Source: an uncultured Burkholderiales bacterium (GTDB lineage: Bacteria > Actinomycetota > Acidimicrobiia > IMCC26256 > JACPCJ01). Taken from it: DNA of 64,000 bases. Positions 18,059 to 32,641 of this stretch are shown piece by piece. The stretch covers positions 7,626 to 71,625 of the forward strand of contig CAYTKN010000013.1 in NCBI GenBank assembly GCA_964438505.1, in the 5' to 3' direction. Every line of letters begins with the position of its first letter. The stretch's first letter is position 1. The translations under genes and the position numbers were made by a program. Under the pieces are notes generated by a model that saw nothing but the letters and a program-made list of their open reading frames with translations, searched no databases and was not told where the DNA came from.

Positions 18059-20599
18059 GTGCTGAAGATCGCGGTCCGCGGGATCCGGAACCACAAGGCC
18101 CGCTTCGCGGCGACGACGTTCGCGGTGGTCCTGGGCGTCTCGTTCGTGGTGGCGAGCTTCGTCCTGGCCGACACGATCCGCAGCGCGTTCGACGATCTGT
18201 TCTCCGAGATCACCGAGGGTGTGGAGCTGTCGGTGCGCTCGAGCGACGCGATCGGGTCGTCGGGTCCGGAGGGCTCGCAGCGACGTCCGGTCCGTGAGGA
18301 GCTCCTCGAGGTGGTCCACGGCACCGAGGGTGTGGCGGTCGCCTCCGGCCAGGTGGAGGGGTTCGCTCGGGTGGTCACGCCGGATGGTGAGCCTGTGACC
18401 GCGACGGGCGCGCCGCTGATCGGGGTGGGGTGGGGCCCGCACGAGGAGTTGTCACCGATCACCCTCGAGCGGGGGGCGAAGCCGGACGGGCCCGGGGAGG
18501 TCGCCGTCGACCGGGGGACGGCGGAGGACTTCGACCTCGAGGTGGGCGACCGGGTGACCGTCGAGGTGGCGACGGGTGTGGTGCCGGCGGAGCTCGTCGG
18601 GATCTTCACCTTCGGCGAGACCAACAGCCTGCTCGGCGCGCGGCTCACCGCGTTCGAGCCGGAGGCAGCGCAGGCGGCGTTCGACTCGGAGGGGTTCTTC
18701 CAGTCGATCGCCGTCGCGCTCGAGCCGGACGCGGACGTCGGCGCGGTCGCGCAGCGCCTGGAGGGGGTGCTGCCCGACGGGCTCGAGGTGGTGACCGGCC
18801 AGACGGTCGCCGACGAGAACGCCTCCGAGGTCAACGAGTTCGTCGACGTGTTCGGCAACGTGCTGTTGGGGTTCGCGGCGGTGGCGCTGTTCGTGTCGGC
18901 GTTCTACATCCACAACACGTTCACGATCATCCTCGGGCAGCGGACCCGCGAGTTGGGGTTGCTGCGCGCGGTGGGGGCGTCCCCCGGCCAGGTGACGCGC
19001 TCGGTGCTCGCCGAGGCGGTGGTGATCGGGGTGGTCGCATCGGTGGTCGGGGTGGGCTTCGGTCTCCTCACCGCCCTCGGTCTGGAGGCGCTGCTGGGGA
19101 TGGCGGGCCTCGACTTCCCGGCGACGGGTTTGGAGCTGCGGGCGCGGAGCTGGGTGCTGGCGGTCGTGGTGGGGGTGGGTGTCACGCTGCTGTCGTCGCT
19201 GGCGCCGGCGAGGCGGGCGGGACGGGTGTCCCCGGTCGTGGCCATGGGCGGCGCGGCGGCGGCTGTCGGCGCCGGGTCGCGGCGGTCGGTCGTCGGGGTG
19301 GTCCTGGTGGGTGTGGGCGCGGTGCTGATCGCGCTGGGGTTGGCGGTGGCGCAGGGCGCGCCGGCGGTGCTGGGGTCGCTCGGGGTGGGTGCGGTCGCCG
19401 TGTTCGTGGGGATCGCGCGGTTGGGTCCGCTCTTCGCCGGGCCGGTGGCGGCGGTGTTGGGTGCTCCGCTGCGGCGGGTGTTCGGGATGCCGGGCCGGTT
19501 GGCGACGGAGAACGCGTCGCGGAACCCGGAGCGCACGGCGTCGGCTGCGTCCGCGCTGATGATCGGTCTGGCGTTGGTGACGATGGCGGCGGTCGCGGGC
19601 CGCTCGATGACGGCGACGTTCGCGGACGCCGTGGAGGAGAGCGTCGCCGCCGATCTGGTCGTCTCGGCGAGCGGGTTCGGGTCGTTCAGTCCGGCGTTCG
19701 CGGAGGAGATCGCCGAGCTGGAGGAGGTGGGTGCGGTCACGCCGGTGCGGTTCGGATCGTTCCGCTTCGGCGGCGAGGAACGTTCGGCGGTGGGGGTGGA
19801 TCCCCGCGGCGCGCAGGCGCTCTTCGAGCTGGACGCGCTGGCGGGGTCGCTCGGTGACCTGGACGCGTCGTCGCTCGCCGTCCACGAGGACCCGGCGGAG
19901 GATCTGGGTCTGGGCGTCGGCGACGAGGTGGACGTCGAGTTCACCCGCTCGGGGGAGACGACGCTGCGGGTCGCGGCCGTCTACTCGGACGCGACGCTGG
20001 TGGGCAACTACCTGGTGAGCACCGAGGGGTGGGGTGAGCGCTTCAACGTGGCGACCGACTCGCTGGTGCTGGTGGGGGCGGCCGAGGGTGTGGACGTCGA
20101 GGAGCTCGAGGAGGCGACCACTCGGGTGGCGGAGGCGTATCCGGCGCTCGCCGTCGAGAACCGGGCCGAGTTCCGGGAGAGTCAGCAGGACCAGTTCTCG
20201 CAGATCCTCGTGGCGGTGAACGGCATGTTGGGCCTGGCGGTGCTGATCGCCGGGTTGGGGATCGCGAACACGATGGCGTTGTCGGTGTTCGAGCGGACCC
20301 GCGAGCTGGGCCTGCTGCGCGCGGTCGGGATGACGTCGCGCCAGGCGCGGCGGATGATCCGGTGGGAGTCGGTCGTGGTGGCGGTCTTCGGGGGTGTCCT
20401 CGGCGTGGCGGTGGGGCTCCTCTTCGGGGTGGTCGTGGTGGCGGCGTTGCCGTCTTCGGTGGCGGCGCGGTTGGTGGTGCCGACGACGACGGTGGTGCTC
20501 ACGCTGGTCGCTGCGGGCGTGGTCGGCTTGCTGGCGGCGATCTTCCCGGCGCGGCGCGCGGGTCGGCTGCGGGTGCTGAGCGCCATCGCCCACGAGTAG
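18059..20599 (+). CDS. ABC transporter permease with two FtsX domains (MacB-type)
   Basis: Track ORF of 846 aa. The N-terminus is MLKIAVRGIRNHKARFAATTFAVVLGVSFV. The motif ERTRELGLLRAVG occurs twice. GGAGG lies 8 nt upstream of the GTG start. Confidence 0.85.
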   Translation: MLKIAVRGIRNHKARFAATTFAVVLGVSFVVASFVLADTIRSAFDDLFSEITEGVELSVRSSDAIGSSGPEGSQRRPVREELLEVVHGTEGVAVASGQVEGFARVVTPDGEPVTATGAPLIGVGWGPHEELSPITLERGAKPDGPGEVAVDRGTAEDFDLEVGDRVTVEVATGVVPAELVGIFTFGETNSLLGARLTAFEPEAAQAAFDSEGFFQSIAVALEPDADVGAVAQRLEGVLPDGLEVVTGQTVADENASEVNEFVDVFGNVLLGFAAVALFVSAFYIHNTFTIILGQRTRELGLLRAVGASPGQVTRSVLAEAVVIGVVASVVGVGFGLLTALGLEALLGMAGLDFPATGLELRARSWVLAVVVGVGVTLLSSLAPARRAGRVSPVVAMGGAAAAVGAGSRRSVVGVVLVGVGAVLIALGLAVAQGAPAVLGSLGVGAVAVFVGIARLGPLFAGPVAAVLGAPLRRVFGMPGRLATENASRNPERTASAASALMIGLALVTMAAVAGRSMTATFADAVEESVAADLVVSASGFGSFSPAFAEEIAELEEVGAVTPVRFGSFRFGGEERSAVGVDPRGAQALFELDALAGSLGDLDASSLAVHEDPAEDLGLGVGDEVDVEFTRSGETTLRVAAVYSDATLVGNYLVSTEGWGERFNVATDSLVLVGAAEGVDVEELEEATTRVAEAYPALAVENRAEFRESQQDQFSQILVAVNGMLGLAVLIAGLGIANTMALSVFERTRELGLLRAVGMTSRQARRMIRWESVVVAVFGGVLGVAVGLLFGVVVVAALPSSVAARLVVPTTTVVLTLVAAGVVGLLAAIFPARRAGRLRVLSAIAHE

Positions 20600-20640
20600 C
20601 GCCTCGCCGGACCGGTGACGTTCGGGGCCGGACGAGCTCC

Positions 20641-20689
20641 AATGTGTGAGTGTGGTGCAGTCAATACGACTGCACCACACTCACACATT
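20641..20689. repeat. 49-nt perfect palindrome, copy 3
   Basis: Identical to copy 2. It starts 42 nt after the permease stop and ends 17 nt before the stop codon of the minus-strand vapC remnant. Confidence 0.95.
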
Positions 20690-20706
20690 GGGAAGGGGTT
20701 CGGCCG

Positions 20707-20772
20707 CTACCAGATGGTCCGGAGATCGGGGATGCCGGCGAGGCGGCGGTCGCGGGTCACGAGGACGTTCAC
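20707..20772 (-). pseudogene. C-terminal remnant of a PIN-domain (VapC) toxin
   Basis: My translation is VNVLVTRDRRLAGIPDLRTIW*. LVTRDRRLA is the typical VapC C-terminal motif. It begins 11 nt after the phd stop, where a full toxin gene of about 130 aa would be expected. Confidence 0.45.
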
Positions 20773-20783
20773 CCGAAGGCTTC

Positions 20784-21020
20784 TCACTCGGTAGCGACGG
20801 GCTCGAGCAGCTCGTCGTCGTCGACGAGGTAGGTGATGCTGCCTCGGAGGTCGTCTCGTACCGGGGCGCGCAGCTCCTCCGGCGATTCGACGGGCACCAC
20901 CTTGGCCACGGGCCGGCCACGCTTGGTGACGATCAGCTCGTCGCCGCTCCGAGCGATGTCGTCGAGGAGCTTGAGGCAGGTGGCCCTGAACCGGCTGGCA
21001 GAGATCTCGCGGGTGTCCAT
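20784..21020 (-). CDS. Phd/YefM-family antitoxin
   Basis: This is the last 78 aa of track ORF 20784..22202: MDTREISASRFRATCLKLLDDIARSGDELIVTKRGRPVAKVVPVE..., a typical Phd/YefM N-terminal fold sequence. Confidence 0.75.
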   Translation of the reverse strand: MDTREISASRFRATCLKLLDDIARSGDELIVTKRGRPVAKVVPVESPEELRAPVRDDLRGSITYLVDDDELLEPVATE

Positions 21021-21068
21021 GCCGCCACGGTAGTCATCTGACCAGCAGCACCGATGCGGCCTGTGGGT

Positions 21069-21089
21069 GTCCCCCGCGTCGCGGGGGAC
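21069..21089 (-). terminator. GC hairpin after the alpha/beta hydrolase gene
   Basis: GTCCCCCGCG-T-CGCGGGGGAC is a 21-nt palindrome, giving an effective stem of about 8 bp. It lies 18 nt downstream of the minus-strand stop at 21107. Confidence 0.35.
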
Positions 21090-21106
21090 GCCCACCGGGG
21101 GCGCGA

Positions 21107-22003
21107 TCAGGTCGGGTCCATCGCGGCGCGCAGGGCGTCGAGGAACGCGGCGGGCTGGTCGCGCGGCGGGTCGTCGGCGGAGTCGTCGATGACGTGCAGC
21201 GGCCATCCGTGGCGGCTGCTGGCCCTCTCCGCGATCTTGAGGCGCAGCGCCTTGTCGTGGCGGCCCCAGACGAGGGTGGTGGGCGCCTCGATGCGGTCGA
21301 GGTCCCCGGCGGGGATGCGTGGCACGCCGGCGGCGCGGAAGAGGCGTCCGGCGGCTTTCGCCTTCGGCGATCGGGCGAGCGCGAGGTTGTAGGCCTCGAA
21401 GGCGTCCCAGTCGTCGCCCATGTCGTCGCGCAGCGTGTCGAGATCGAAGGCGCACTGCCGCATGAAGCGCTCGTAGGTCGCCTCGTTGGGCCGGGCCTGG
21501 AAGCCGAGGAAGCGCAGCGCGAAGGCCGGTGAGGGGCGGAAGCGCCCCAGGCCGAGCGAGTCGACGAGCACGAGCCGGCGCAGCCGGTCGCTGTGGTCGA
21601 CGGCGTAGCGCGCGGCGATCGCGCCGCCGAGGACGTGACCGACGAGGGTGGGTGGCGTCTCGCAGGTCCGCTCGAGGAGCTCGCCGAGCCAGGCGACGAC
21701 GCCTGCGGGGTCGAGGGGGGTGTCGCCGGTGTCGGAGGAGCCGTGCGCGGGGAGGTCGGGGGCGACGACGCGGTGGTCCTCGACGAGGTCGGGGATCACC
21801 CACCGCCAGTTCACCGCGGATTCGCCGGGGCCGTGGAGGAGGACGATCGGGTGTCCGGATCCGCCGGTCAGCACGGCGGTGGGGACGCCGGCGAGGGTGT
21901 GGTGCTCCTCGGTGACGGGGACGCCGTCGAGCAGCCGTCGCCGCTCTCGCTGCCCCACGGGGGCGTCTTCGGCGGCGGTGTGGGTGTCGTCTCGGGTGGA
22001 CAT
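21107..22003 (-). CDS. Alpha/beta-fold hydrolase
   Basis: 298 aa counted from ATG 22003, with AGGAGG upstream. Motifs are HPIVLLHGPG, the nucleophile-elbow-like VGHVLGG, and a late His in SRHGWPLHVID. Confidence 0.8.
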   Translation of the reverse strand: MSTRDDTHTAAEDAPVGQRERRRLLDGVPVTEEHHTLAGVPTAVLTGGSGHPIVLLHGPGESAVNWRWVIPDLVEDHRVVAPDLPAHGSSDTGDTPLDPAGVVAWLGELLERTCETPPTLVGHVLGGAIAARYAVDHSDRLRRLVLVDSLGLGRFRPSPAFALRFLGFQARPNEATYERFMRQCAFDLDTLRDDMGDDWDAFEAYNLALARSPKAKAAGRLFRAAGVPRIPAGDLDRIEAPTTLVWGRHDKALRLKIAERASSRHGWPLHVIDDSADDPPRDQPAAFLDALRAAMDPT

Positions 22004-22205
22004 CGGCGACCTCCTGGGGTGCGTCCGTACTGGCGTCGTGTGTCCACCGCAGTGTGCGGGAGGTGCGTCGAGGCGGCATCGCCCGAATCCGCCAATCTTC
22101 GGATCGGGGCGCGTGGTGCGAATGGCCCACGCGTCCCCGGCTGCCCACCCGTGCTCCCACGACACCCGTGGCCGGGTTGACCGGAACCCTTGGTCGGTCC
22201 ACCGG

Positions 22206-22343
22206 CTATGAGGATTCGGGGTGGCGCGCCTCCAACATCGCCGTGAGCAGCTCCCTGAGGGCCGCGAACGCCTCGAGCTCAAAGTGTCTCACCCGTCCGC
22301 GAAGCTCGAACGCGCATGTCGCGAGTGCTGGGGCGAGACGAGG
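22206..22343 (-). pseudogene. C-terminal fragment of a paralogue of the 23498..24049 HTH protein
   Basis: APALATCAFELRGRVRHFELEAFAALRELLTAM aligns with ARVIGAVNAALELRGAREALDPDAFAAVRELLTAT. The DNA core GTGAGCAGCTCCCTGA.GGCCGCGAA is shared between 22244-22283 and 23532-23571. Confidence 0.4.
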
Positions 22344-22392
22344 CCGTGACCACGTCTCTCTGCTGTCGATAGTCAACGGAGACCGATGCGAT

Positions 22393-23211
22393 GTGAAGAG
22401 TGCTCTGAACTTCATCGCTCGTCACGCAGGAAGCGTGTTGCTCGCCTTGACGGGCGTCACCCTTGTCGTGTTCTCGATCGTGACGTATTCAATCGACCGC
22501 GACGGTGCGATTCTCGGCTTCACGTTCCTCGGAGTCGCCGCCGTCGCCCTCGGCGCGTTGCTGCCACGTCTCGTCGAAGGGGAGCTTGCGCCACAGCGCG
22601 TGAGTTTCAAACTCGCCCACGAGCGACGGACATCGGTACGACTCGCGCAGACGCCACGTGTGCGACCGGACCAACTCGACGAGCCAAGCGAGCTGGTGGT
22701 GGGAAGTCGCCATGCGCTCGCGAGTGAAGCTTTGGCCCACATCCTGCAGACCGCGGACCAGGAATCAGTCCTCGCGGGCTGCCACCTGCGCTTGTACCTG
22801 TACGACGAGGATCGCGGACGGCTCGTGCCGGTGCTGCTCCCAGACGAAAGCCGAGATGATGTAGCCGACATCGAGGAATGGGAGGTGGGGACAGGTGCCA
22901 CGGGTACCGCCTACCAGCGAGGGGAGTTCGTCCTCGCTGAGGGCTCGGCGGTCTGGGATACCACCCACGGACTCACGGAAGAGCAGAGCACGAGGTTCCG
23001 GCATCTCACAGCCGTCGCATCGATGCCAGTGACGAACGCCGCTTCGGAGGTACTCGCTGTGATGACGGCTGCTACGTCGGAGCCCGATGGGGGGCACCTC
23101 GGCACCGACGAGGCCTACGACGTCTTGATCGCTCGCTCCCTACTCGTGGCTCGCATCCTGGTGGACCTTCTCGGATGGTTTCCCGACCGCTATGGTGAGA
23201 GCGATGAGTAG
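22393..23211 (+). CDS. Two-TM protein with a C-terminal GAF-like domain, unknown function
   Basis: This is the real part of track ORF 22054..23211, with a GTG start at 22393. Two hydrophobic helices (SVLLALTGVTLVVFSIV and ILGFTFLGVAAVALGALL) are followed by a GAF-like pattern (CHLRLYLYDEDRGRLVPV...GTGATGTAYQRGEFV...AVASMPV...VLAVMTAATSE). GC3 is lower than in neighbouring genes. Confidence 0.6.
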   Translation: MKSALNFIARHAGSVLLALTGVTLVVFSIVTYSIDRDGAILGFTFLGVAAVALGALLPRLVEGELAPQRVSFKLAHERRTSVRLAQTPRVRPDQLDEPSELVVGSRHALASEALAHILQTADQESVLAGCHLRLYLYDEDRGRLVPVLLPDESRDDVADIEEWEVGTGATGTAYQRGEFVLAEGSAVWDTTHGLTEEQSTRFRHLTAVASMPVTNAASEVLAVMTAATSEPDGGHLGTDEAYDVLIARSLLVARILVDLLGWFPDRYGESDE

Positions 23212-23497
23212 CGGCAATGGCTACACGGTTCGCAAGGTGTCGGACGCAGAGCGTTCTCGCGCGCTCACAGGCGCTTTCGCTGGCGGAAGACGGATCCTGA
23301 TCTCCCCAGGTCAGGGAAAGGCGATCCTCCGGGGGGTACACCCTCGTGCTCGGCCTCGACAGCGTCGAGGGAGCACACGAGCGGGCCGAGCGCGCGGTGG
23401 CCGGTCGCGAGCGCGGGCTGGATCGCCTCCGGTGAGTCGTCTCCCCTCGTGAGCTCATCCGACGCCTGAGCTCGTCACGCGCGCCCCATCCGAGCTG

Positions 23498-24049
23498 TCA
23501 GGTTCTCGACGGCCGACCTTCCGGGGTTGCGGTGAGCAGCTCCCTGACGGCCGCGAAGGCGTCGGGGTCGAGGGCTTCTCGGGCGCCGCGCAACTCCAAG
23601 GCGGCATTGACCGCCCCGATCACGCGTGCGTCGGCTGCGGCGTCTTCGTCACCGAGCCAGGCGGCGACGTCGGCCCACCGCCACAGCTTCGATCGCGCCT
23701 CCGCCCGCAACGCCGGTGGCGGGAACCCCTCGCGGATGATCCCCTCGGACCACTGACGGACGGTCTCGCGGGTGCGGCCCGTGCGTTCGGCGATCTCGGC
23801 CAGGGTCACGAGCTGGTCGTCCTCGACCCGGGTCACACGGAGACCGTTGACCGACTCGACCTGCCGGATGGCGGTCAGCACCGCGTCGAGGATGTCGGGG
23901 GCCTCGCGGTCGACGGTGGCCACGGCGACGCCGTGCACCCATCCGACGAGAGCGTCGTCGAGCCCTGCCTCGTAGAGCTGGTCGACGGTGTCGAGGTCGT
24001 CGCGGTCGAGCCCCGCGATGACCAGCTCGAAGGTGTGCTCCGTCGACAT
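23498..24049 (-). CDS. HTH DNA-binding protein (excisionase/MerR-like HTH) with an unknown N-terminal domain
   Basis: Track ORF of 183 aa. LVTLAEIAERTGRTRETVRQW...RLWRWADVAAWL resembles an HTH_17-type motif. Confidence 0.65.
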   Translation of the reverse strand: MSTEHTFELVIAGLDRDDLDTVDQLYEAGLDDALVGWVHGVAVATVDREAPDILDAVLTAIRQVESVNGLRVTRVEDDQLVTLAEIAERTGRTRETVRQWSEGIIREGFPPPALRAEARSKLWRWADVAAWLGDEDAAADARVIGAVNAALELRGAREALDPDAFAAVRELLTATPEGRPSRT

Positions 24050-24095
24050 CGTTTCTCTACCGCCCCACCGCTACCCGGCTTCCCCAGCACTTGAC

Positions 24096-24124
24096 ATTCT
24101 GCAAGTACCCTTGGTCTTTGTCAA
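24096..24124 (-). promoter_or_regulatory. Sigma70-like promoter TTGACA-N17-CAGAAT overlapping an inverted repeat
   Basis: The minus strand reads gcTTGACAaagaccaagggtacttgCAGAATgtcaagtgc. The inverted repeat CTTGACA (24090-24096) / TGTCAAG (24119-24125) brackets it. It lies about 45-75 nt upstream of ATG 24049. Confidence 0.4.
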
Positions 24125-24344
24125 GCACAGGGCTCGGAGCTGGTCGGAGATCTGGCCGCCGTGCAGGATCGCGGTCTTGCTCGAGGATTCGGTCACCCGC
24201 AGATCCTGGCGGGCACATGTGACAGGAATCCCTTCATCGTCGACCGCATCGGCCCTCCCCCATGATCAGCTGCGCCCCACCACGGGCGCGACGAGCAACG
24301 CTGATCCGTCGACGCTGGTGCCCGTGTCGACGGCCCTGGGCTGT

Positions 24345-24755
24345 TCAGGGCGCGGGCGGGGTCAGCTCCACGGCTGTGTGGGCCCGTACTGCCCGTGCGA
24401 GGCGCTCGTCGGCGGTGAGGAGTGTTCCGCCGGTGAGCTCCGCGAGCGCGACATAGCTGGCGTCATAGGGCGAGAAGTTGGAGCGGAGCTCGAACAGCCG
24501 AGCGAGCAACGACTGGTGGCCGTGTCTGGTCACCGGAAGATCCAGGTAGTCCTGGAGCGCTTCGGTCGCGCGACGACTGGACATGAGGTCGCGGCGTAGC
24601 CCACGTCGCAGGCCGGCGGCGATCTCGACGTCGCAGAGCGCCGGGACGTGGACGTCGACATCCGGGTTCCGGAGCACCTCGCGGGCCGGCGGGGCTGCTT
24701 CGGTGCCGAGGAGGTACTCGAGGACCGCCGACGCGTCGGCAACGACGAGCTTCAG
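24345..24755 (-). CDS. vapC: PIN-domain toxin VapC, apparently with a non-canonical CTG start
   Basis: The frame is open upstream of the track start at GTG 24677. It encodes LKLVVADASAVLEYLLG..., which carries the conserved first Asp. CTG 24755 overlaps the antitoxin stop as CTGA. The C-terminus is LLTADERLARA. Confidence 0.75.
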   Translation of the reverse strand: MKLVVADASAVLEYLLGTEAAPPAREVLRNPDVDVHVPALCDVEIAAGLRRGLRRDLMSSRRATEALQDYLDLPVTRHGHQSLLARLFELRSNFSPYDASYVALAELTGGTLLTADERLARAVRAHTAVELTPPAP

Positions 24756-24991
24756 GACGCGTCCCTTTCTCTGCGCTCCTCGGCGATGAGGTCGGCGGCT
24801 CCGCCTCCGAGCGACACGGGGTCTCTGCCCTCGATGCGGTCGAGCACCTCGGACGCTGGAGGTCGGGCAAGCTCTCGTTCGAGCAGACTCTGGATGTAGT
24901 CGGTGAGGGACTGGCCGCGCGCGTTCGCACGCCTCGTGAGCTCGCGGTGCACCTGGTCCGGGACGTTGCGCACCTGGATCATCTTGGACAT
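24752..24991 (-). CDS. vapB: Ribbon-helix-helix antitoxin (VapB/FitA-like)
   Basis: 79 aa counted from ATG 24991: MSKMIQVRNVPDQVHRELTRRANARGQSLTDYIQSLLEREL, a typical RHH antitoxin sequence. Confidence 0.8.
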   Translation of the reverse strand: MSKMIQVRNVPDQVHRELTRRANARGQSLTDYIQSLLERELARPPASEVLDRIEGRDPVSLGGGAADLIAEERRERDAS

Positions 24992-25003
24992 GCGATCAGC
25001 GTG

Positions 25004-25022
25004 CCACATGTGGATCACATGT
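25004..25022 (-). promoter_or_regulatory. Candidate RHH operator
   Basis: The 10-bp perfect palindrome CCACATGTGG (25004-25013) is followed by a second CACATGT (25016-25022). The site lies 13-31 nt upstream of the antitoxin ATG. Confidence 0.3.
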
Positions 25023-25115
25023 TCAACGAGGGTTCGCTGTGTGCCGCTCCCCCATGGCGACTCCGGGGCATCGGACTGGAGTTCCGGTCCAGTGCGGTCC
25101 CGCGCGGTCCGGCGC

Positions 25116-25517
25116 TCAGGCCGGCGGTGGTTCGACGCGCTCGACGGTGTCGACCCGGTCGAGGGATCGGTCGAAGGAGGCGACGGTGCCGACGCCGGTG
25201 CTCTCAGCGCACGCCACGAGGTAGGAGTCGGCGAAGTCGATCCGGTCGGTCTCGTACACCTCGACGGCGCGGAGCAACAGCGCGGGGTCGACGCAGGTGA
25301 TCGGCTCGAAGGCAACGATCGAGCGGAGGGCTTCGGCGACGTCTTCGCGGGCCGCTTCGTAGAACGACTCGAGGACGGACACGGTCTCGGCGGCGACGAG
25401 GTCGGTGAGCAACAGGTCGGGTCCGGCGGCGAGGTACGCGGTCGCGCGTGCGGCGGTCTCCGGCGGGTCGCCGGTGAGGTGCCGGACCAGGATGTTCGTG
25501 TCGACGAACGCGCTCAT
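25116..25517 (-). CDS. vapC: PIN-domain toxin VapC
   Basis: MSAFVDTNILVRHLTGD...DFADSYLVACAE...VASFDRSL over 133 aa. ATG 25517 overlaps the antitoxin stop (ATGA). Confidence 0.85.
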   Translation of the reverse strand: MSAFVDTNILVRHLTGDPPETAARATAYLAAGPDLLLTDLVAAETVSVLESFYEAAREDVAEALRSIVAFEPITCVDPALLLRAVEVYETDRIDFADSYLVACAESTGVGTVASFDRSLDRVDTVERVEPPPA

Positions 25518-25762
25518 CGACGCCGCGCGCCCCGCTCGGCTCGACTGCGCCGGAGGACCTCGTCCCACGCGGCGTTGCGCTTCGCTGCCGGCACGCGGAT
25601 CGTTCCGGCGAGGTCGAGGAGGTCGGGGGTGCGCGCGAGCACGGCCCGGTCGCCTTCGACGCGGAAGACGACGGCGTCGCCCTCTTCGATGCCGAGCGCG
25701 TCGCGAACGGCCTTGGGGACGGTCACCTGCCCCTTCGAGGTCATCTTCGCGGCAGCATCCAT
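25514..25762 (-). CDS. AbrB/MazE/SpoVT-family antitoxin
   Basis: MDAAAKMTSKGQVTVPKAVRDALGIEEGDAVVFRVEGDRAVL is a looped-hinge-helix type sequence. AAGGAG lies 7 nt upstream of the start. The inverted repeat TCCTTAC/GTAAGGA (25770-25795) overlaps the RBS. Confidence 0.8.
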   Translation of the reverse strand: MDAAAKMTSKGQVTVPKAVRDALGIEEGDAVVFRVEGDRAVLARTPDLLDLAGTIRVPAAKRNAAWDEVLRRSRAERGARRR

Positions 25763-26155
25763 CACAATCTCCTTACGAATAATGTCAAGTAAGGATACCC
25801 GGCCTCGACCGCGCTCGCAGCCCCTCACAGCACACATGGTGGCCCCGGGGTCCGACAGGAACCCCTCATCACGAACGAGGGGTGGGAGACCCCACCAATC
25901 GACGGGCCACCTGGTTCCACCACACCACAGGACGCCGACTCCACCACCTCACGGGACGCCGACGTGGCGCCGCTACGACGCGGACGTGGTCGACGCGTGC
26001 CTCCGGGTGGTGCCCGAGATGACCGTCTGAGATGCCTCGGGGTCGGACGGCGCCGATGACCCACGAGCCGTCCGGCGGGACAGACGCAGCGAGGGGCCGG
26101 CGTGCCCGATGTGCACGTCGCCGACCACGACGACGGCCGGGCAGACCAACACGTC

Positions 26156-27655
26156 TCAGCGTTCGCGACCCTGCGCGGGCGGGAACCAGATCCTCGTGGG
26201 ACCTCGGGCTCGCTGTGGGATCAGCACCGGCTCGGTGTTCCAGTCCTCGAGGCACGAGTAGCGGATCGGAGTATCACGCCGGTCGGACTGGGCGGGGGCG
26301 GTGACGAAGATGAGCTGCGGGTCGTCCGTGCAGATCCGCTCATTGAGCTGTTCGGACTTCAGGTCGAGCACCTTGCGGTCCAGGTAGTACCGGAGCTCGT
26401 AGGGGAACGGGTCGTCGGTGATGACCTCGGTGTCGGCGTCTCGCGCTTCGATCGCCGCGGCCGTCTCCTTGAAGGCTTCGCGCGGTTCTCGGACGTGCGC
26501 GAGGACGTGGTCCACGAAGCTGGTCGAGACGCTGACGAGCAGCGCGGCGAGCGCGGCGGCGCCGAGCGCCCGCGTCCAACGCGGGCGTGCCAGCGCGACC
26601 CCGACGCGCGCGAGGCCGATGCCGAAGAGGGTGAGGGTGGGCACGAGGACGGGGCTCGTGTACCGGGCGTACACCGGGATCTCCCGCACGGCGAGGACGG
26701 CGAAGAAGCCGACGATCGGCACCGCCAGGAGTGCCAGCAGCCACCGGTCGTTCCTCGCGAGCCACACGGCTCCGTACACGACCACCGCGCCTCCGACGAC
26801 GACGCCGAGCGCGCCCGCGAGGCTCGGGTGCACGAACTGGAGGACGGGGGTGACGAAGCGTTCGAGCGGTCCCGTGACGACGCCGTGTGGCGGGACGACG
26901 GCGCCGCCGCGGCGTTCGGTGACCGAGCCGCTGACGTCGACAAGCTCTCCGAGGAGTGGCCAGTAGAGGCCGATGGAGGCGACGCCTGCTGCGGCCGTGG
27001 CGACCACTGCTCCAAGGCGCGCCCGGTGGTTCAGCAGGAGCACGCCGGTGTGGAGGAGGAAGGGGACGGCCATGACCGGCAGCGCCCAGATCCCGACCGC
27101 GCCGCTCGCTGCGAGCACCGCGACCCACCGCTTCGGTCCCCCGTCGGACAGCCGGGTGGAGGCCACGATCCACAGCGCTGCCGCGAGGAACGCCAGGCCG
27201 TAGCCGCGGGCGAGTCGCGACTGCACGAAGTGCATGGGGGACACGAGGAACACCGCGGCGATGACGACGGCGGTCCACGGCGTCAGGCGCCTCCAGAGCC
27301 ACGTGCCCAGCACCGCGACGGCCGCGATCGCCGGCAGGGTGCTGCCGAGGCGGTACAGCACCTCGGAGCCACCGACGAGTGATCCGGCGGCCCATGTGAG
27401 CACGCTGTATGCCACGTGGTTGTTGATCTTGTAGATGCTCGGGTCGTAGATGCTGCCGAGGCCGGGGTCGACGTAGTTGACGACCGTCCAGAGCTCGTCT
27501 TCCCAGAAGCTCTGGCCGAGGCCGGGAAGGCGGCTGGCGAGGAACGCGATCGCGAGGGCGATCCCGGCGGCGAGGGCGATCCACCACGACGTGGTGCGCG
27601 ACGGCGCCACGAGGCGGGACCGGCCCGAGCTCAGCAGCTTGGCGACGGTCGCCAT
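26156..27655 (-). CDS. GT-C-type membrane glycosyltransferase (ArnT/PMT_2-like)
   Basis: 499 aa counted from ATG 27655. The first loop reads GQSFWEDELWTVVNY (acidic DE motif). About 11 TM helices precede a soluble C-terminal domain. Confidence 0.75.
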   Translation of the reverse strand: MATVAKLLSSGRSRLVAPSRTTSWWIALAAGIALAIAFLASRLPGLGQSFWEDELWTVVNYVDPGLGSIYDPSIYKINNHVAYSVLTWAAGSLVGGSEVLYRLGSTLPAIAAVAVLGTWLWRRLTPWTAVVIAAVFLVSPMHFVQSRLARGYGLAFLAAALWIVASTRLSDGGPKRWVAVLAASGAVGIWALPVMAVPFLLHTGVLLLNHRARLGAVVATAAAGVASIGLYWPLLGELVDVSGSVTERRGGAVVPPHGVVTGPLERFVTPVLQFVHPSLAGALGVVVGGAVVVYGAVWLARNDRWLLALLAVPIVGFFAVLAVREIPVYARYTSPVLVPTLTLFGIGLARVGVALARPRWTRALGAAALAALLVSVSTSFVDHVLAHVREPREAFKETAAAIEARDADTEVITDDPFPYELRYYLDRKVLDLKSEQLNERICTDDPQLIFVTAPAQSDRRDTPIRYSCLEDWNTEPVLIPQRARGPTRIWFPPAQGRER

Positions 27656-27662
27656 GCGGTTC

Positions 27663-28628
27663 TCAGTACCCGTACCGCCGCCGCAGCGGGGCGGTGAGCA
27701 TCGAGAGGGCGAGGTCGCTGCCGCGGGGTCGCGTCCGGCCGTCTCCCTCGGTGTCGGGCGTGTCGGGCGTCTCGGTGTGGTCGGCACCGATGGTGATGCG
27801 ACCCGATCCGGTTCGGCCGGGGTTGCCTCCGACCATGTGGGTGGCGGCCACCTCCACGGTTCGGTCGTCGACGAAGGGTGTCACCGCGTCGCGCTCCGCG
27901 ACCATCTCGAGGACTCGCGCCACCGATCCCCTGGGTCGTACCGAGAGGTCCTCGTAGCGGAGCAGCATCGATCGTTCGTTGGTGAGGCGCCGCCGGGCGA
28001 TCTCGGCGACGGCGTTGCGAGCCGTCCACGACAGGGCAGTGTGCAGGGAGCCGTAGCGCGGCATCGTGTCCTGGTCCTCGCGGTCGGTCCACGCCTTGGG
28101 CCGCGCCCACGAGCGGGCGACGGCGCGGGGGTCGCGCACGAGTTGGACGGCGTAGGGCGCGACTTCGGGGACGAGGCCGAGCGCGGCGGGGTGGAGGGCG
28201 AGCTTGGACGAGTCGACGACGACGTTCGCTCCCGCCTCCAGAGCGATCGCCCGGTAGAGGCGCCCGGCGATGTCGGTCCACTCGTCGAGGGCGCGCCATC
28301 GTCGTGGTGGCGTCGGTGGCTGGCGGAGCAGCCGGGGTGCGAGGTGCCACCGGATCACTCGCTGCTGGAGCGCGTGGAGTCGCCGGCCTTCGGCGGCGGT
28401 CGGTTCGATCCCGGCGTCGGCGAGGACGTTCCGCCAGAACGGGCACGTGGGGACGGGTTCGCCGCAGGCGCAGCGGTACCCGCGGGCGAGGCCCCAGTCC
28501 CACAGGTAGACGAGCTCGCCGACGCTGGCGAACCCGTCGGTGGCACCGAGGACGTTGTCGAGGAGGGTGCTGCCGCTGCGCCCCTTGCCGACGATGAACA
28601 GGGTCTTGACGGGGTGCTCCACGCTCAT
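27663..28628 (-). CDS. Sulfotransferase-family protein (PAPS-type P-loop)
   Basis: 321 aa counted from ATG 28628. FIVGKGRSGSTLL is a 5'-PSB-like loop. RDPRAVARSW and a CxCGExVxxCPFW motif are present. Confidence 0.8.
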   Translation of the reverse strand: MSVEHPVKTLFIVGKGRSGSTLLDNVLGATDGFASVGELVYLWDWGLARGYRCACGEPVPTCPFWRNVLADAGIEPTAAEGRRLHALQQRVIRWHLAPRLLRQPPTPPRRWRALDEWTDIAGRLYRAIALEAGANVVVDSSKLALHPAALGLVPEVAPYAVQLVRDPRAVARSWARPKAWTDREDQDTMPRYGSLHTALSWTARNAVAEIARRRLTNERSMLLRYEDLSVRPRGSVARVLEMVAERDAVTPFVDDRTVEVAATHMVGGNPGRTGSGRITIGADHTETPDTPDTEGDGRTRPRGSDLALSMLTAPLRRRYGY

Positions 28629-29596
28629 GTGCTCGGGGGATACCTCTCGGTGGTCGTTCGCAGCGGGTAGCCGTAGCGTGCGAGGAGCGGCGCTGCGAGG
28701 GCGGTGGAGACGAGCGCGTCGCGGCGTGGGAGCGAGGCGCGCCATTCGGTGTCCTCGCGGATGGTCACCGAGCGGCGGCCGACGCGGTCGGGGTTGCCGC
28801 CGACGGTGTGGTTCTCGGCGATCTCGAAGTCGGGGCCGGTGGGTGCGAGGTCGGGGTCGAGGTCGACGAGCTCGAGGATCCGGCGCATGGCGCCGGTCGG
28901 GTCGGCGGCGAAGTCCTCGTAGCGCAGCAGCAGGGAGGGGGCGGTGCTGGTCCTGCGGAGGAGCTCGACGACGAGGTTGCGGACCGTCCAGCTCATCGTG
29001 CTGTACGCGGCGCCGTAGGTGGGCATCATGGCCCCGGAGTCCCGGTCGGTGAAGGCCTTCTCCCGCTTCCAGGAGTGGACGACGGCGCGGGGGTCGCGCA
29101 CGAGCTGGAGGAGGCGGGGTCGGATCCCGGGCACGTAGCCGAGCATGGCGGGTTCGAGGGGGATCTTCGAGGCGTCGACGATCACGTCGCTGCCGGTGAC
29201 GTCGCGCACGGCCCGGTAGAGCTGGGCCTTCAGCTCCGACCACTCGCGCAGCGCGCGCCATCGCCGTCGGGTGAGGTCGCGGCTGGCGAGGTGGAGGCGG
29301 GGGGCGTGGTGCCAGCGGATGACGCGGCGTTGGAGCGCGAGGACCTCCTCGTGGCCCCGCGCCGGGGCGCCGGGGAGCCGGGCGAGCACCTCCGACCAGA
29401 TCGGGCAGCGGGCGACGTGCTCGCCGCAGCCACATCGGACGCCCTGCTCGAACCCCCAGTCCCAGAGGTGGACGAGCTCGCCGGCGGTGAACACCCCGTC
29501 GATCTGGCCGAGCAGGTTGTCGAGGATGGTGCTGCCGCTTCGTCCCTTGCCGAGGATGAACAGCACCGTGACGTCGCTGGTGGTGGTGTCGCTCAC
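28625..29596 (-). CDS. Sulfotransferase-family protein, paralogue of 27663..28628
   Basis: 323 aa counted from GTG 29596. FILGKGRSGSTIL, RDPRAVVHSW and CGCGEHVARCPIW are present. Both ends overlap neighbours by 4 nt: its GTG start with the upstream stop (GTGA) and its stop with the downstream ATG (ATGA). Confidence 0.8.
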   Translation of the reverse strand: MSDTTTSDVTVLFILGKGRSGSTILDNLLGQIDGVFTAGELVHLWDWGFEQGVRCGCGEHVARCPIWSEVLARLPGAPARGHEEVLALQRRVIRWHHAPRLHLASRDLTRRRWRALREWSELKAQLYRAVRDVTGSDVIVDASKIPLEPAMLGYVPGIRPRLLQLVRDPRAVVHSWKREKAFTDRDSGAMMPTYGAAYSTMSWTVRNLVVELLRRTSTAPSLLLRYEDFAADPTGAMRRILELVDLDPDLAPTGPDFEIAENHTVGGNPDRVGRRSVTIREDTEWRASLPRRDALVSTALAAPLLARYGYPLRTTTERYPPST

Positions 29597-30591
29597 GGGT
29601 CGGTGGGACCTCCGTCGGTCGTGGAGACGCTGAGGTCGTCCCGGTCGATGTCGGGGGCCGCTTCGTCGGCGACGGCTCCGACACTCCGGGAGGGGCCGCG
29701 CACGGCGAGGCCGAGCGCGACGCTGCCGAGCACGGCGAAGGAGGCGAGGCGGTGGACGACGGTGGCCATGAGTCCGACGGCGACGGGGAGGCCGACGAGG
29801 GGGCTGATGCCCGCGGCGATGGCTTCTCGGAGGCCGAGGCCTCCGGGGAAGATGCCGACGGCGGCCGCCGCGGCGCCGGCGACGGTGAGGGCGACGGCCT
29901 GGGTGGCGTCGACGTCGAAGCCGAGGCCTTCGATGATGAGGAAGAGCCGGAGCCCGTTGACGACCACGAAGGCCACCTCGATGAGGGCGACGCGCACCGC
30001 GAGCGCCGGCGCCCGTTCGGCGCCGACCCGTCGGCTCATCCACGCGTAGGCGATCACGAGGCCCACGAGCGCGACCGCGGTCCAGGCGGCGCCGAGCGCG
30101 GGCGATCCGAGCGCGAGTTGGGCGACGCCGGCGATGAGCACGGTGATGGCCACCCACCCGGCTCCGATGAGGGCGGTGGCGGAGACGGCTTCGCGGTAGC
30201 CGGGGCCGAGCTGGCGGAGGGCCTGGACGCGCACGAGCGCGGCGCCGGGGAGGGGCAGGAGGTTGGCGGCGTTGGCGATGACGGTGACCCGCAGCGCGCG
30301 CGAGGCGGGGACGCGGTGGCCGACCATCAGCGCGGAGGTGTGGAACTCCATGCCGTTGAGGAAGACGGTGGGTGGGACCCCGCCGACGGAGCCGAGCAGC
30401 AGCGGCCACCACTCGAGGCCGCCTTCCACGTCGGGGAAGCGTTGGAAGGCGAAGTATCCGGCGCCGAGGAACACGAGAGCCGAGAGCACGAGCAGCGCGC
30501 GCTCGACTCGCGGCGAGCGTTGCTCGGCGCGGCGGCGGAGCAGGCCGCCGACGGCTGCGCTCCATCGGGCGAGCTGGGGCCGTGAGGCCAC
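29593..30591 (-). CDS. Polytopic membrane protein, flippase-like (LPG-synthase-TM / UPF0104-like)
   Basis: Track ORF of 332 aa with about 8 TM helices. The motif GIFPGGLGLREA is typical of that family as I recall it. Confidence 0.55.
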   Translation of the reverse strand: MASRPQLARWSAAVGGLLRRRAEQRSPRVERALLVLSALVFLGAGYFAFQRFPDVEGGLEWWPLLLGSVGGVPPTVFLNGMEFHTSALMVGHRVPASRALRVTVIANAANLLPLPGAALVRVQALRQLGPGYREAVSATALIGAGWVAITVLIAGVAQLALGSPALGAAWTAVALVGLVIAYAWMSRRVGAERAPALAVRVALIEVAFVVVNGLRLFLIIEGLGFDVDATQAVALTVAGAAAAAVGIFPGGLGLREAIAAGISPLVGLPVAVGLMATVVHRLASFAVLGSVALGLAVRGPSRSVGAVADEAAPDIDRDDLSVSTTDGGPTDP

Positions 30592-30595
30592 GCCG

Positions 30596-31705
30596 TCACT
30601 CCCCTTCGACGAGTCCGAGCACGGCGACGAGCTCGTCGCTGTAGCGCTCGGGTGACGAGCGTGCGGCCGTCTCGGCTTGGAAGCGGGCGGCGATCTCGAG
30701 GCGGTGGTCGCTGTCCGCGCGCAGCTCGAGGATGCGGTCCACGAACTGGTCGGCGGCTTCGGGGTCGCAGAGGTAGCCGGTGGCGCCGTCGGTCATGGCG
30801 TCCTCGATGCCTTCGAGGCGGGAGGCGACGACGGCGGTGCCGGCGACGGCGGCTTCGATGGCGGCGAGGCCGAACCCTTCCATGTCGTCGCGCACGGCGA
30901 TGTTGGGCATGACGAAGCAGTCGGCACCGAGGAGCACGGTGTCGCGGAGGTGGTCGTCGACGTTGCCGAGCAGGTGGACCCGGTGGTCGAGGCCGCCGCT
31001 GTCGACGGCGGCGACGATGGCGTCGGCGTCGTCGCCGGTGCCGGCGACGACGAGGTGCACGTCGTCGGGGAGCTTCGGGAGCACGTCGGTGACGAACCAG
31101 CGCACGCCCTTGCGTCGCACGAGCCGGCCGACGCTGGCGACGACGAAGGTGTCGTCGTCGAGGTCGAGGAGCCGGCGCAGCTCGCGGGCGCGTGCAGCGC
31201 GCTCACCGGTGGGTGGGGGTGCGAGGTCGGTGGCGGGGTTGACGACGTCGGTGCACCCCGCGGGGATCCCCGACGTGTGGGCGACCTGCGCGGTGGCGCT
31301 GCTGTTGGCCACGACGCGGTCAACGCGGCGCAGCACGCGGCTCACGGCGGCGCGGTAGCCGGGGAACGGGAAGGTGAGGTCGAGGCCGTGCACCATCACG
31401 ACGACGCGCACGCCGGGGAGGAGCCGCAGCGGCGACATGACGGCCCCGGTGATGGCGTCGCCGCAGAGGACGATCCGGGAGCGGCGGGTGAGCACGAGCG
31501 CGGCGACGCGCACGAGGGCGACGGGCAGGAACCACACGAGGTGGCGTTGCGAGCGGCCGAGGGCGACGAGCCGTGAGGGCCCGTGGCGGCGGAGCGCTTC
31601 GTGGACCTGCCGGGCGAGGGTCTGCATGCCGCCGACGGTGGGCGGGAACTTGCGGGTGACGAACACGACCTGCTCGGTGGTCGCTGCGTGAGGCGAGGGA
31701 GTCAT
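30596..31705 (-). CDS. GT4-family glycosyltransferase
   Basis: VVFVTRKFPPTVGGMQT is followed by a GT-B C-terminal half with EGFGLAAIEAAVAGTAVV (E-x7-E region). The alternative start GTG 31738 is the track start. Confidence 0.8.
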   Translation of the reverse strand: MTPSPHAATTEQVVFVTRKFPPTVGGMQTLARQVHEALRRHGPSRLVALGRSQRHLVWFLPVALVRVAALVLTRRSRIVLCGDAITGAVMSPLRLLPGVRVVVMVHGLDLTFPFPGYRAAVSRVLRRVDRVVANSSATAQVAHTSGIPAGCTDVVNPATDLAPPPTGERAARARELRRLLDLDDDTFVVASVGRLVRRKGVRWFVTDVLPKLPDDVHLVVAGTGDDADAIVAAVDSGGLDHRVHLLGNVDDHLRDTVLLGADCFVMPNIAVRDDMEGFGLAAIEAAVAGTAVVASRLEGIEDAMTDGATGYLCDPEAADQFVDRILELRADSDHRLEIAARFQAETAARSSPERYSDELVAVLGLVEGE

Positions 31706-31747
31706 GGGGTCGGAGGGGATCGGAGCGCGGGACGGCACGTCCCGAGG

Positions 31748-32641
31748 TCACATCGACGCGGGGTCGACCTGGTCGGACGGTCGGGTGACGCGCACGACCA
31801 GGTCGGCGAGCAGGCCGATCGCGAAGACCTGGAAGGCGGCGAAGAGGATGAGCAGGGTGTTGGTGGCGACGCGGAACTCCTTGTCGAAGGCGTCGAATCC
31901 GAGCTTGCCGAGGCCGATGGCGGTGAGGAGGAAGCCGATGGGCAGGAAGACGCGCAACGGGTTGTAGGAGAGGATCATCCGGATGACCTGGGTGACGTAC
32001 TTCTTGGTGTCGGTCCAGGGGTGGAACTTCGACTCGCCGGCTCGGGCCTTGTAGTCGATCGGCGTGTACTTGATGGAGTAGCCGCCGGAGAGGAACGCCA
32101 TCGTCATGGTGGTGACGCACGAGAACCCGGGCGGCAGGTGGTGGAGGTACTGGGCGGCGACGGCGCGGCGGAAGGCCCGGAACCCGGAGTTGAGGTCGGG
32201 GATCTCGGTCTGGGTGAGGTACTGGGCGAGCTTGCGGATCGTCCACTTGGCGGGCACCCGGAAGAACTTCTTGGTGCCCTGCTCGGAGCTGCGCGCCCCG
32301 ACGACCTGGTCGTGGCCTTCGAGCTCCTTGACGAGCCGGGGGATCTCGTCGTTCGGGTAGGTCATGTCGACGTCGGTCCAGACGACCACCTCGCCGCGCG
32401 CCGCGTGGGTGCCGACGCGGCGCGCGGAGCCCGATCCGCGGTTCCGGCTGAACCGGAAGAGGCGGATGCCGTCGATCTCGCGCAGCTCGTCGGCGGAGCC
32501 GTCGGTGCTGCCGTCGTCGACGACGACGATCTCGAAGCTGTAGGGGGAGGCGTCGAGCGCCGCGCGGATGCGGTCGATCTCCTCGCGGAGGTGTCCGGCC
32601 TCGTTGTAGACGGGTAGGACGACGGAGACGTCGACTCTCAT
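31748..32641 (-). CDS. GT2 polyprenol-phosphate glycosyltransferase (DPM1/GtrB-like) with C-terminal TM helices
   Basis: VSVVLPVYNEAGHL, VVVDDGSTDGS and VWTDVDMTY (DxD) are present, followed by two C-terminal TM helices. Confidence 0.85.
   Translation of the reverse strand: MRVDVSVVLPVYNEAGHLREEIDRIRAALDASPYSFEIVVVDDGSTDGSADELREIDGIRLFRFSRNRGSGSARRVGTHAARGEVVVWTDVDMTYPNDEIPRLVKELEGHDQVVGARSSEQGTKKFFRVPAKWTIRKLAQYLTQTEIPDLNSGFRAFRRAVAAQYLHHLPPGFSCVTTMTMAFLSGGYSIKYTPIDYKARAGESKFHPWTDTKKYVTQVIRMILSYNPLRVFLPIGFLLTAIGLGKLGFDAFDKEFRVATNTLLILFAAFQVFAIGLLADLVVRVTRPSDQVDPASM

Follow-up and report, generated by a model that had tools for sequence, protein, structure and literature searches.

The only membrane-anchored GAF toxin validated so far, toxFtsL(D9) of Gelidibacter mesophilus, consists of a transmembrane (TM) segment, a helical region and a GAF domain (Ernits et al. 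2023, PMC10440598). Previous work has shown that it is a type II toxin, that PanA, the product of a separate gene, neutralises it, and that it blocks divisome assembly, with delayed lysis that occurs without depolarisation (PMC10440598). In phage T4, a small antiholin, RI, binds the globular domain of the holin T and blocks its self-association (PMC11413866). Here we describe a locus in a 64,000-nucleotide stretch of contig CAYTKN010000013.1 (hereafter the window), in which a gene for a protein with two TM helices and a GAF domain (2TM-GAF) overlaps a gene for a small basic protein. The DNA of the window is high in GC (70% overall) and actinobacterial in look, and a public contig identical to it, L027, served as an independent gene call. 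Two unrelated modules adjoin at this point, within an islet rich in toxin-antitoxin (TA) genes: the cassette formed by the GAF gene and the small open reading frame (ORF), and a gene for a helix-turn-helix (HTH) protein of the PDC-M06B type. The coordinates of all features are collected in Table 1.

The 2TM-GAF protein and its small basic partner

An initial annotation, made from the letters of the DNA, had read the first gene as two N-terminal TM helices followed by a GAF-like domain, and structure modelling, fold searches and a family profile bear this out. The AlphaFold2 model, built on 16 homologues (mean predicted local distance difference test score, pLDDT, 82.9), places a globular alpha/beta domain after the TM helices, with no long helix running from the second TM helix to the GAF domain. 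Among its top 50 Foldseek matches in the PDB are the GAF domains of PDE5A, PtsP, fRMsr and CyaB2, with E-values of 1e-6 to 1e-4 and a template modelling score (TM-score) on the target of up to 0.77. A profile of the family matches the tandem GAF domains of CyaB2 (1ykd) with an E-value of 4.3e-6. In addition, distant members of the family reach 28.4-28.8 bits on the Pfam GAF_2 model (PF13185), for which the cut-off is 28.6, and a precomputed PF13185 assignment is present on three homologues. We conclude that the window protein is, as modelled, two TM helices joined to a GAF fold, despite having no direct Pfam match. The soluble part carries a net charge of -19, and positive charges lie at the N-terminus and past the second TM helix. 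From the way charge is distributed about the TM hairpin, an N-in/C-in topology is predicted, which would place both the GAF domain and its partner in the cytoplasm.

That partner, a small ORF whose start lies inside the end of the GAF gene, had been overlooked when the neighbours of the GAF gene were first described, and it is the true conserved one. Scanning six-frame translations with a hidden Markov model (HMM), we found the small ORF directly 3' of the GAF gene in 31 of 31 loci, including loci in which gene callers had not called it. The linkage spans ~30-60% protein divergence and two architectural subfamilies. It is also reciprocal, in that every contig found by way of the small protein carries a 2TM-GAF gene ahead of the small gene. 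Across loci the partner is 50-75 aa long and either overlaps the stop codon of the GAF gene or lies within ~90 nt of it; in the short form of the family, to which the window copy belongs, the overlap is 4-20 nt, and the 20 nt seen in the window suggest translational coupling.

A scan of the same 31 loci, with flanks of up to 8 kb, using an HTH-family HMM detected a homologue in none of them. The initial annotation had proposed that the HTH protein and the membrane GAF protein form one sensor-effector module. With the HTH and GAF genes never co-occurring across these loci, that pairing is refuted; what the family conserves as a functional unit is the GAF gene together with its small neighbour. 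The gene calls on L027 omit the small partner, so neighbourhood analyses built on such calls can assign the GAF gene a wrong partner.

The small proteins share the core motif ..KV(T/S)...R..A......R(V/L).(I/L)T.GQ.(K/R).I. A profile search recovered 59 of them in public data, all annotated as hypothetical and lacking a Pfam domain. For the window copy and four homologues, Pfam gave no match at E <= 1 apart from two chance-level ones for a single homologue (E 0.17-0.23). The AlphaFold2 model of the small protein, which is of moderate confidence (pLDDT 71.8; predicted TM-score 0.35), has two short helices and extended segments, and it found no Foldseek match. The isoelectric point (pI) of the window copy is ~12, and the two families are complementary in charge: the median net charge is -17 for the GAF proteins (pI 4.6) and +6 for the small partners (pI 11.3).

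We also considered a natural fusion of the two proteins as evidence of interaction and rejected it, since the sole candidate, P0219, looks like a frameshift artefact. In this 353-aa protein the GAF profile matches residues 9-232 and the small-protein profile residues 310-346, likely through frameshift read-through of the overlapping pair. In one locus (L013, 102-853) the GAF-family gene itself is split between two frames, covering HMM positions 10-201 and 198-267; this is either a frameshifted pseudogene or an assembly error, and the small ORF is kept downstream of it.

Two forms of the family and how the pair may act

An exhaustive HMM search returned 575 cluster representatives at E <= 1e-3, of which 157 reached E <= 1e-30; at 50% identity, the family comprises at least 575 clusters. 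In every member examined, two TM helices lie at the N-terminus and a GAF domain at the C-terminus, and this domain ends in an invariant helix, R(V/I)L(V/I)D(L/V)L.W. A peptide-pattern scan of a genome collection found two species genomes only, an undercount given that exact patterns were required. Neither protein of the pair is represented in NCBIfam, PADLOC or PHROGs, or, as regards the window copies, in Pfam, and we found no published description of the family.

Members fall into a short and a long form. The short form, which includes the window copy, is ~250-290 aa long and has a GC content at third codon positions (GC3) of 0.65-0.78, in hosts whose core and gyrase genes have a GC3 of up to 0.95-0.98. 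Four of its cassettes (L001, L002, L006 and L008) lie between a tRNA-Ile gene and a tyrosine integrase gene, and that of L007 adjoins an integrase fragment. Elsewhere the neighbours are, locus by locus, HsdR with Mrr_cat and DUF4268; Mrr_cat with NERD; IS1595 with PRTase; and ParE with an antitoxin. Judged by composition and setting, the short-form cassettes are foreign and mobile. The idea that the locus draws on a conflict-related or mobile gene pool is consistent with the GAF gene, with relatives near integrases, Mrr/NERD/HsdR, ParE and IS1595, and fails for a unit of HTH and GAF genes.

At the level of architecture, the window protein resembles toxFtsL (WP_027127282.1), a membrane-anchored toxin of ~280 aa whose globular part is a GAF domain and which is encoded in a two-gene operon with its neutralising partner. 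Our pair likewise consists of two adjacent co-directional genes, one of which combines TM helices with a GAF domain, in 31 of 31 loci. Long-form relatives have a helical linker ahead of the GAF domain, and its DivIC/FtsL-type Pfam match is weak (E 0.25). There are differences as well. The partner here is a basic protein of 50-75 aa with no match to Panacea/DUF4065, the window protein has a two-helix hairpin and lacks the long FtsL-like helix, and the hosts are Actinobacteria rather than Bacteroidota. We conclude that the pair is an undescribed actinobacterial two-gene module, and that its architecture has one validated analogue, which has another partner and belongs to another phylum.

Taken together with the two-module anatomy of the locus, a TA-like reading of the pair seems plausible, and we hold it tentatively, at somewhat less than an even chance. 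Because of the precedents set by toxFtsL and holin T, we infer that the small protein may restrain the GAF protein and that release of this effector may lead to arrest or lysis. The first gene would produce a hairpin-anchored, N-in/C-in protein with a strongly acidic cytoplasmic GAF domain, and this protein would act as an effector on the membrane or the envelope. The small basic partner would bind the acidic GAF domain and hold the effector in check in the manner of an antitoxin or antiholin, until ligand binding in the GAF pocket, or loss of a labile partner, set it free. The freed effector would then arrest growth or division, or lyse the cell, and the outcome would be stabilisation of a mobile element or abortive infection.

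The long form is ~330-420 aa in length, with a coiled coil linking its TM helices to its GAF domain, and has a host-like GC3 of ~0.9. On several diverged contigs (L020, L021, L022, L016, L025, L032, L033 and L035; for example L033, 4926-6165) its genes stand in the same order: NlpC/P60, an unknown gene, a GT4 glycosyltransferase, the pair, an acyl-CoA ligase, a metallophosphoesterase, SRPBCC and ArsA. The acyl-CoA ligase gene is convergent to the pair, and a ROK kinase gene also occurs past ArsA. These flanking genes presumably resemble the mycobacterial ripC-pimB-fadD15 region.

The main rival to the TA-like reading is a non-toxic signalling pair, which carries weight because the long form sits in this conserved envelope-gene synteny. 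The membrane-tethered GAF protein would sense a cytoplasmic or envelope-derived metabolite and would sequester its partner, a small basic nucleic-acid-binding regulator, at the membrane, in a partner switch of the anti-sigma kind; ligand would free the regulator and change gene expression, probably of envelope or division functions. Fixation of the long form beside NlpC/P60, GT4 and acyl-CoA ligase genes on diverged contigs is consistent with such a role, as are the classical function of GAF domains as small-molecule sensors and the fact that no known defence or toxin model matches the pair. A partner with a pI of ~11.3 facing a very acidic GAF domain would fit DNA or RNA binding, although the small protein has no recognisable DNA-binding fold. 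The short form, on the other hand, is patchy, compositionally foreign and found near integrases, restriction, TA and insertion sequence genes, which fits selfish or defensive cargo better, and a regulator arriving on a 1.2-kb cassette has no obvious regulon. We therefore regard a signalling pair as possible but rather doubtful.

It is also conceivable that the TA-like reading applies to one form of the family and a derived function to the other. An acidic, membrane-tethered GAF sensor would be held by its tiny basic partner in both; the mobile short form would be a new TA or abortive-infection system at the end of integrative elements next to the attachment (att) site, and the long form would be a domesticated regulator of envelope growth or division. 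In this full form we consider the proposal unlikely.

Several observations weigh against a TA-like pair. The core synteny of the long form looks vertically inherited and of a housekeeping kind, an unusual pattern for modules of TA or defence type, and direct binding between the GAF and small proteins would follow solely from gene linkage and charge. No homologue of the GAF protein was found by tblastn in 50,697 phage or 72,556 plasmid records, nor in IMG/VR contigs, and a phage or plasmid origin could thus not be shown. By itself, the window GAF protein gave no matches in Pfam (E <= 1), NCBIfam, PADLOC or PHROGs; the window small protein gave none in PADLOC, NCBIfam or PHROGs, and neither Pfam nor Foldseek revealed a recognisable antitoxin fold in it. 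Finally, a promoter scan of the window found no convincing promoter for the GAF gene, and the Arg-rich tail of the window small protein, 27 aa in length, is atypical.

The lack of a clear promoter and the aberrant tail are also among the points for a further explanation, by which the cassette would be a lysis-control remnant: a holin/antiholin-like pair that outlasted the decay of a prophage or integrative element and now does nothing for the host. Like holin T, the window protein is membrane-anchored with a globular alpha/beta domain, and a search of viral models with its fold brings up T4 T-type (class III) holins, which rank among the best matches, along with phage proteins that have a GAF domain and a membrane protein of a Gordonia phage. 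However, the TM-scores to holins are modest (0.39-0.64), and no sequence homologue exists in the phage genomes or viral contigs searched. Moreover, T has a single TM helix and a periplasmic domain, and its antiholin RI is secreted, whereas two TM helices and a cytoplasmic domain and partner are predicted here; T and the window protein share no sequence similarity, and an endolysin gene is unlinked to the pair in most loci. Integrase genes are adjacent in several loci, and VanY and transglycosylase genes lie just upstream in L001 and L003, but the VanY gene of L001 is outside the element, across the tRNA gene. Both genes of the window are, in addition, intact and full-length relative to their homologues, and we consider a lysis remnant improbable.

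The holin matches, found in BFVD with the model of the TM helices and GAF domain, are class III holins of Proteus phage Stubb, phiP4-3 and Serratia phage PS2, at a Foldseek probability of 1.0; the others are a membrane protein of Gordonia phage Finkle and several phage proteins annotated as "GAF domain-containing". That models of T4-type holins match in this way suggests that the soluble domain of holin T may be GAF-like. The cell-wall hydrolase genes upstream of short-form cassettes are a Tad/VanY gene in L001 (2130-2747) and a transglycosylase/VanY gene in L003 (2896-3945). In L001 the tRNA-Ile gene separates hydrolase gene and cassette, which makes the hydrolase gene probably host sequence outside the element.

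TM effectors of CBASS and Pycsar systems (for example PycTM and 2TM-SAVED) also combine N-terminal TM helices with a C-terminal domain that binds small molecules or nucleotides, in the context of defence islands. Their sensor domains are of the cNMP-binding or SAVED type, in contrast to the GAF domain here, and the linked gene in our loci encodes a tiny basic protein. No gene for a nucleotide cyclase, a CD-NTase or another enzyme that generates a signal was found among the Pfam-annotated called neighbours in the loci examined, where the small basic protein gene is the one constant neighbour.

Should the TA-like reading be correct, the pair would represent a sizeable and entirely unannotated two-gene family in high-GC Gram-positive bacteria. 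It would extend the membrane-anchored GAF toxin from its single validated case to a new type of partner and a new phylum, and it would link mobile conflict modules with a conserved envelope and division locus. Consisting of two small genes, the module is easily testable, the predictions being toxicity, neutralisation, binding, and filamentation versus depolarisation.

The HTH gene and insertion of the cassette

PADLOC, which returned nothing for the GAF protein, matched the HTH protein to PDC-M06B (PDLC04388) with an E-value of 1.7e-19 over residues 6-154 of 183, and PHROGs matched it to phrog_2620 ("excisionase and transcriptional regulator") with an E-value of 1.8e-24. The protein has an N-terminal domain followed by an AlpA/MerR-like HTH, for which the AlpA-like match in the PDB is weak. 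Homologues of this B component occur in 347 plasmid records, mostly of SSU5-like phage-plasmids, and in the phages SSU5 and Cyrano, in both of which a 74-78-aa match to PDC-M06A lies directly upstream of B. An A-like ORF also precedes B in the actinobacterial relatives L028, L029 and L030. In the window, neither tblastn nor an HMM made from three A-like proteins found PDC-M06A, whether at 24050-24345 or elsewhere, and compared with L030, ~285 bp containing A are missing. The window locus thus has the B component of PDC-M06 and lacks the upstream A component of ~75-100 aa. With A absent and the operator kept, the HTH gene is an orphan B component; we conclude from these comparisons that it is the leftover half of a two-gene module of the PDC-M06 type, unrelated to the GAF cassette. 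PDC-M06 itself is a computational defence candidate only, for which we found no published function in the literature. A PADLOC-type match on one gene can mark a remnant rather than a system, and the HTH locus is a clean example.

The A and B pairs of Cyrano (L037, 1207-2055) and SSU5 (L038, 1203-2070) are annotated as HicA/HicB and as excisionase/regulator, respectively, and Pfam supports neither label. A HicAB identity for PDC-M06 was considered and rejected, as no Pfam HicA or HicB match was obtained at E <= 1-5 for the window, L028, L029, L030, Cyrano or SSU5.

The near-consensus promoter TTGACA-N17-CAGAAT that the initial annotation assigned to the HTH gene is real by our scan: it scores 10 out of 12 and is the sole such site in the region, against 0.2 expected. 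The palindromic sequence at the promoter, described before as an inverted repeat, is more accurately a tandem of two 16-bp palindromes, CTTG-N8-CAAG, at a pitch of 20 bp. In 64 kb the pattern occurs just these two times, against 0.25 expected, and the pair overlaps the -10 and -35 elements. An 82%-identical orthologue locus (L030/L031) has the palindrome pair as well, with a conserved core, upstream of its A-B operon, and L030 also keeps the promoter sequence. Thus, relatives have A upstream together with the same promoter and operator, whereas the window keeps only B and the operator. The start codon of B lies 41 nt past the operator in the window, and in L030 this position is taken by the A ORF. 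Because B follows a conserved operator and promoter so closely, the HTH gene is probably still autoregulated through this putative operator, as had been suggested, and the conserved tandem arrangement over -35 and -10 strengthens that suggestion.

These features might be taken to favour the proposal that the HTH and 2TM-GAF genes form one module, of the sensor-effector or abortive-infection kind, in which the HTH protein would be the regulator and would also control its own gene. In the window the two genes are neighbours, the HTH promoter is strong and carries an operator-like tandem palindrome, and sequence derived from the HTH gene lies on either side of the GAF cassette. However, the HTH family has its own partner in PDC-M06A and its own operator, which in the orthologue lies upstream of A-B, and none of the 31 GAF-family loci has an HTH homologue. 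The two genes also differ in composition (GC3 of 0.89 for HTH and 0.74 for GAF), and since they are convergent they are not co-transcribed. A single module is, on this evidence, very improbable.

To the left of the cassette lies a decayed duplicate of the 3' end of the HTH gene. The homology of this C-terminal remnant, as first described, is real: it has 17 of 32 identities (53%) with HTH residues 148-179 (BLASTP E 2e-7), and tblastn agrees. Its length was overstated, at 45 codons instead of ~32. The two copies of a 41-nt direct repeat bracket the GAF and small genes, and with the decayed duplicate on the far side, the cassette has a copy of the HTH 3' end at each of its flanks. The inserted segment has a GC content of 0.64, compared with 0.70-0.75 in the flanks. 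GC3 is 0.74 in the GAF gene, 0.62 in the small ORF and 0.76 in the HTH remnant, a range of 0.62-0.76 for the segment, compared with 0.82-0.94 in flanking genes and 0.89 in the HTH gene; the third codon positions of the GAF gene are thus richer in AT than those of its neighbours, as had been noted. The ~1.2-kb cassette has been acquired horizontally.

With respect to the route of insertion, the best family match of the remnant is the adjacent HTH gene (57% over 30 aa) and not the orthologue P0018, whereas the C-terminus of the intact HTH protein is 74% identical to P0018. That the remnant is closest to the local gene favours either a local partial duplication accompanied by insertion or an insertion between tandem copies. 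The same two comparisons disfavour a model in which an element integrated into the HTH gene, displaced its original 3' end and supplied a replacement. No integrase or transposase gene was found within ~10 kb of the cassette. Between the ribbon-helix-helix (RHH) gene and the second PIN gene, ARAGORN called a 97-nt tRNA-Ser(GGA) at 25040-25136 (+). As Rfam at its gathering threshold reports no tRNA in 20000-27000, this call is probably a false positive, and we therefore see no tRNA integration site at the cassette.

Feature coordinates and neighbouring genes

Table 1. Features of the locus, in window coordinates
Feature	Position	Strand	Basis
Decayed duplicate of the HTH gene 3' end	22206-22343; homologous core 22224-22319	-	BLASTP, tblastn
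Left copy of 41-nt imperfect direct repeat (85% identical)	22240-22280		Repeat search, DNA alignment
Inserted low-GC3 segment of ~1.2 kb with the two-gene cassette (approximate bounds)	22320-23512		GC, GC3, repeats
2TM-GAF gene, 272 aa	22393-23211	+	ORF; identical 272-aa gene call on L027
First TM helix of GAF protein	~22426-22494 (residues ~12-34)	+	Hydropathy, AlphaFold2 model
Second TM helix of GAF protein	~22504-22569 (residues ~38-59)	+	Hydropathy, AlphaFold2 model
GAF domain, acidic, predicted cytoplasmic	~22684-23169	+	Model, profile, family alignment
Small basic partner gene	23192-23452	+	Alignments, HMM; start 20 nt before GAF stop codon
Conserved core of small ORF	23219-23371	+	Alignments
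Arg-rich C-terminal extension of small ORF, non-homologous	23372-23452	+	Alignments
HTH protein, 183 aa, PDC-M06B/phrog_2620 type	23498-24049	-	PADLOC, PHROGs
Right copy of 41-nt direct repeat	23529-23569		Repeat search; spacing 1289 nt
Tandem 16-bp palindromes CTTG-N8-CAAG, putative operator	24090-24105 and 24110-24125		Pattern count
Sigma-70-like promoter of HTH gene, TTGACA-N17-CAGAAT	24096-24124 (read 24124 to 24096)	-	Promoter scan

The surroundings of the locus are dense in TA genes, as the initial annotation had stated: Pfam searches and the L027 gene calls identify a PhD-like gene, a FitA-RHH gene with a PIN gene, and a MazE gene with a PIN gene. An ABC-permease gene ends only ~185 bp away from the PhD/YefM-type antitoxin gene (20784-21020, minus strand; PF02604 in the L027 annotation). 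This leaves no room for a toxin gene downstream, and the PhD/YefM antitoxin thus seems to be an orphan.

The VapC/PIN gene downstream of the FitA-like RHH gene (24345-24752, minus strand) is called at 110 aa and covers positions 30-117 only of the Pfam PIN profile. The N-terminal part that it lacks (VLKLVVADASAVLEYLLG, which contains the first catalytic Asp) can be read in frame upstream, where there is no ATG, GTG or TTG. The junction between the RHH stop codon and the PIN gene reads tcCTGAag; either the start codon has been lost, or CTG serves as a rare start.

Sulfotransferases are uncommon in the envelope loci of actinobacteria. A cell-surface cluster that follows the TA islet on its right, at ~26100-32500 (L027, 1-6372), has genes for a 499-aa polytopic membrane protein, two Sulfotransfer_3 proteins, an LPG_synthase_TM protein and a GT4 glycosyltransferase.

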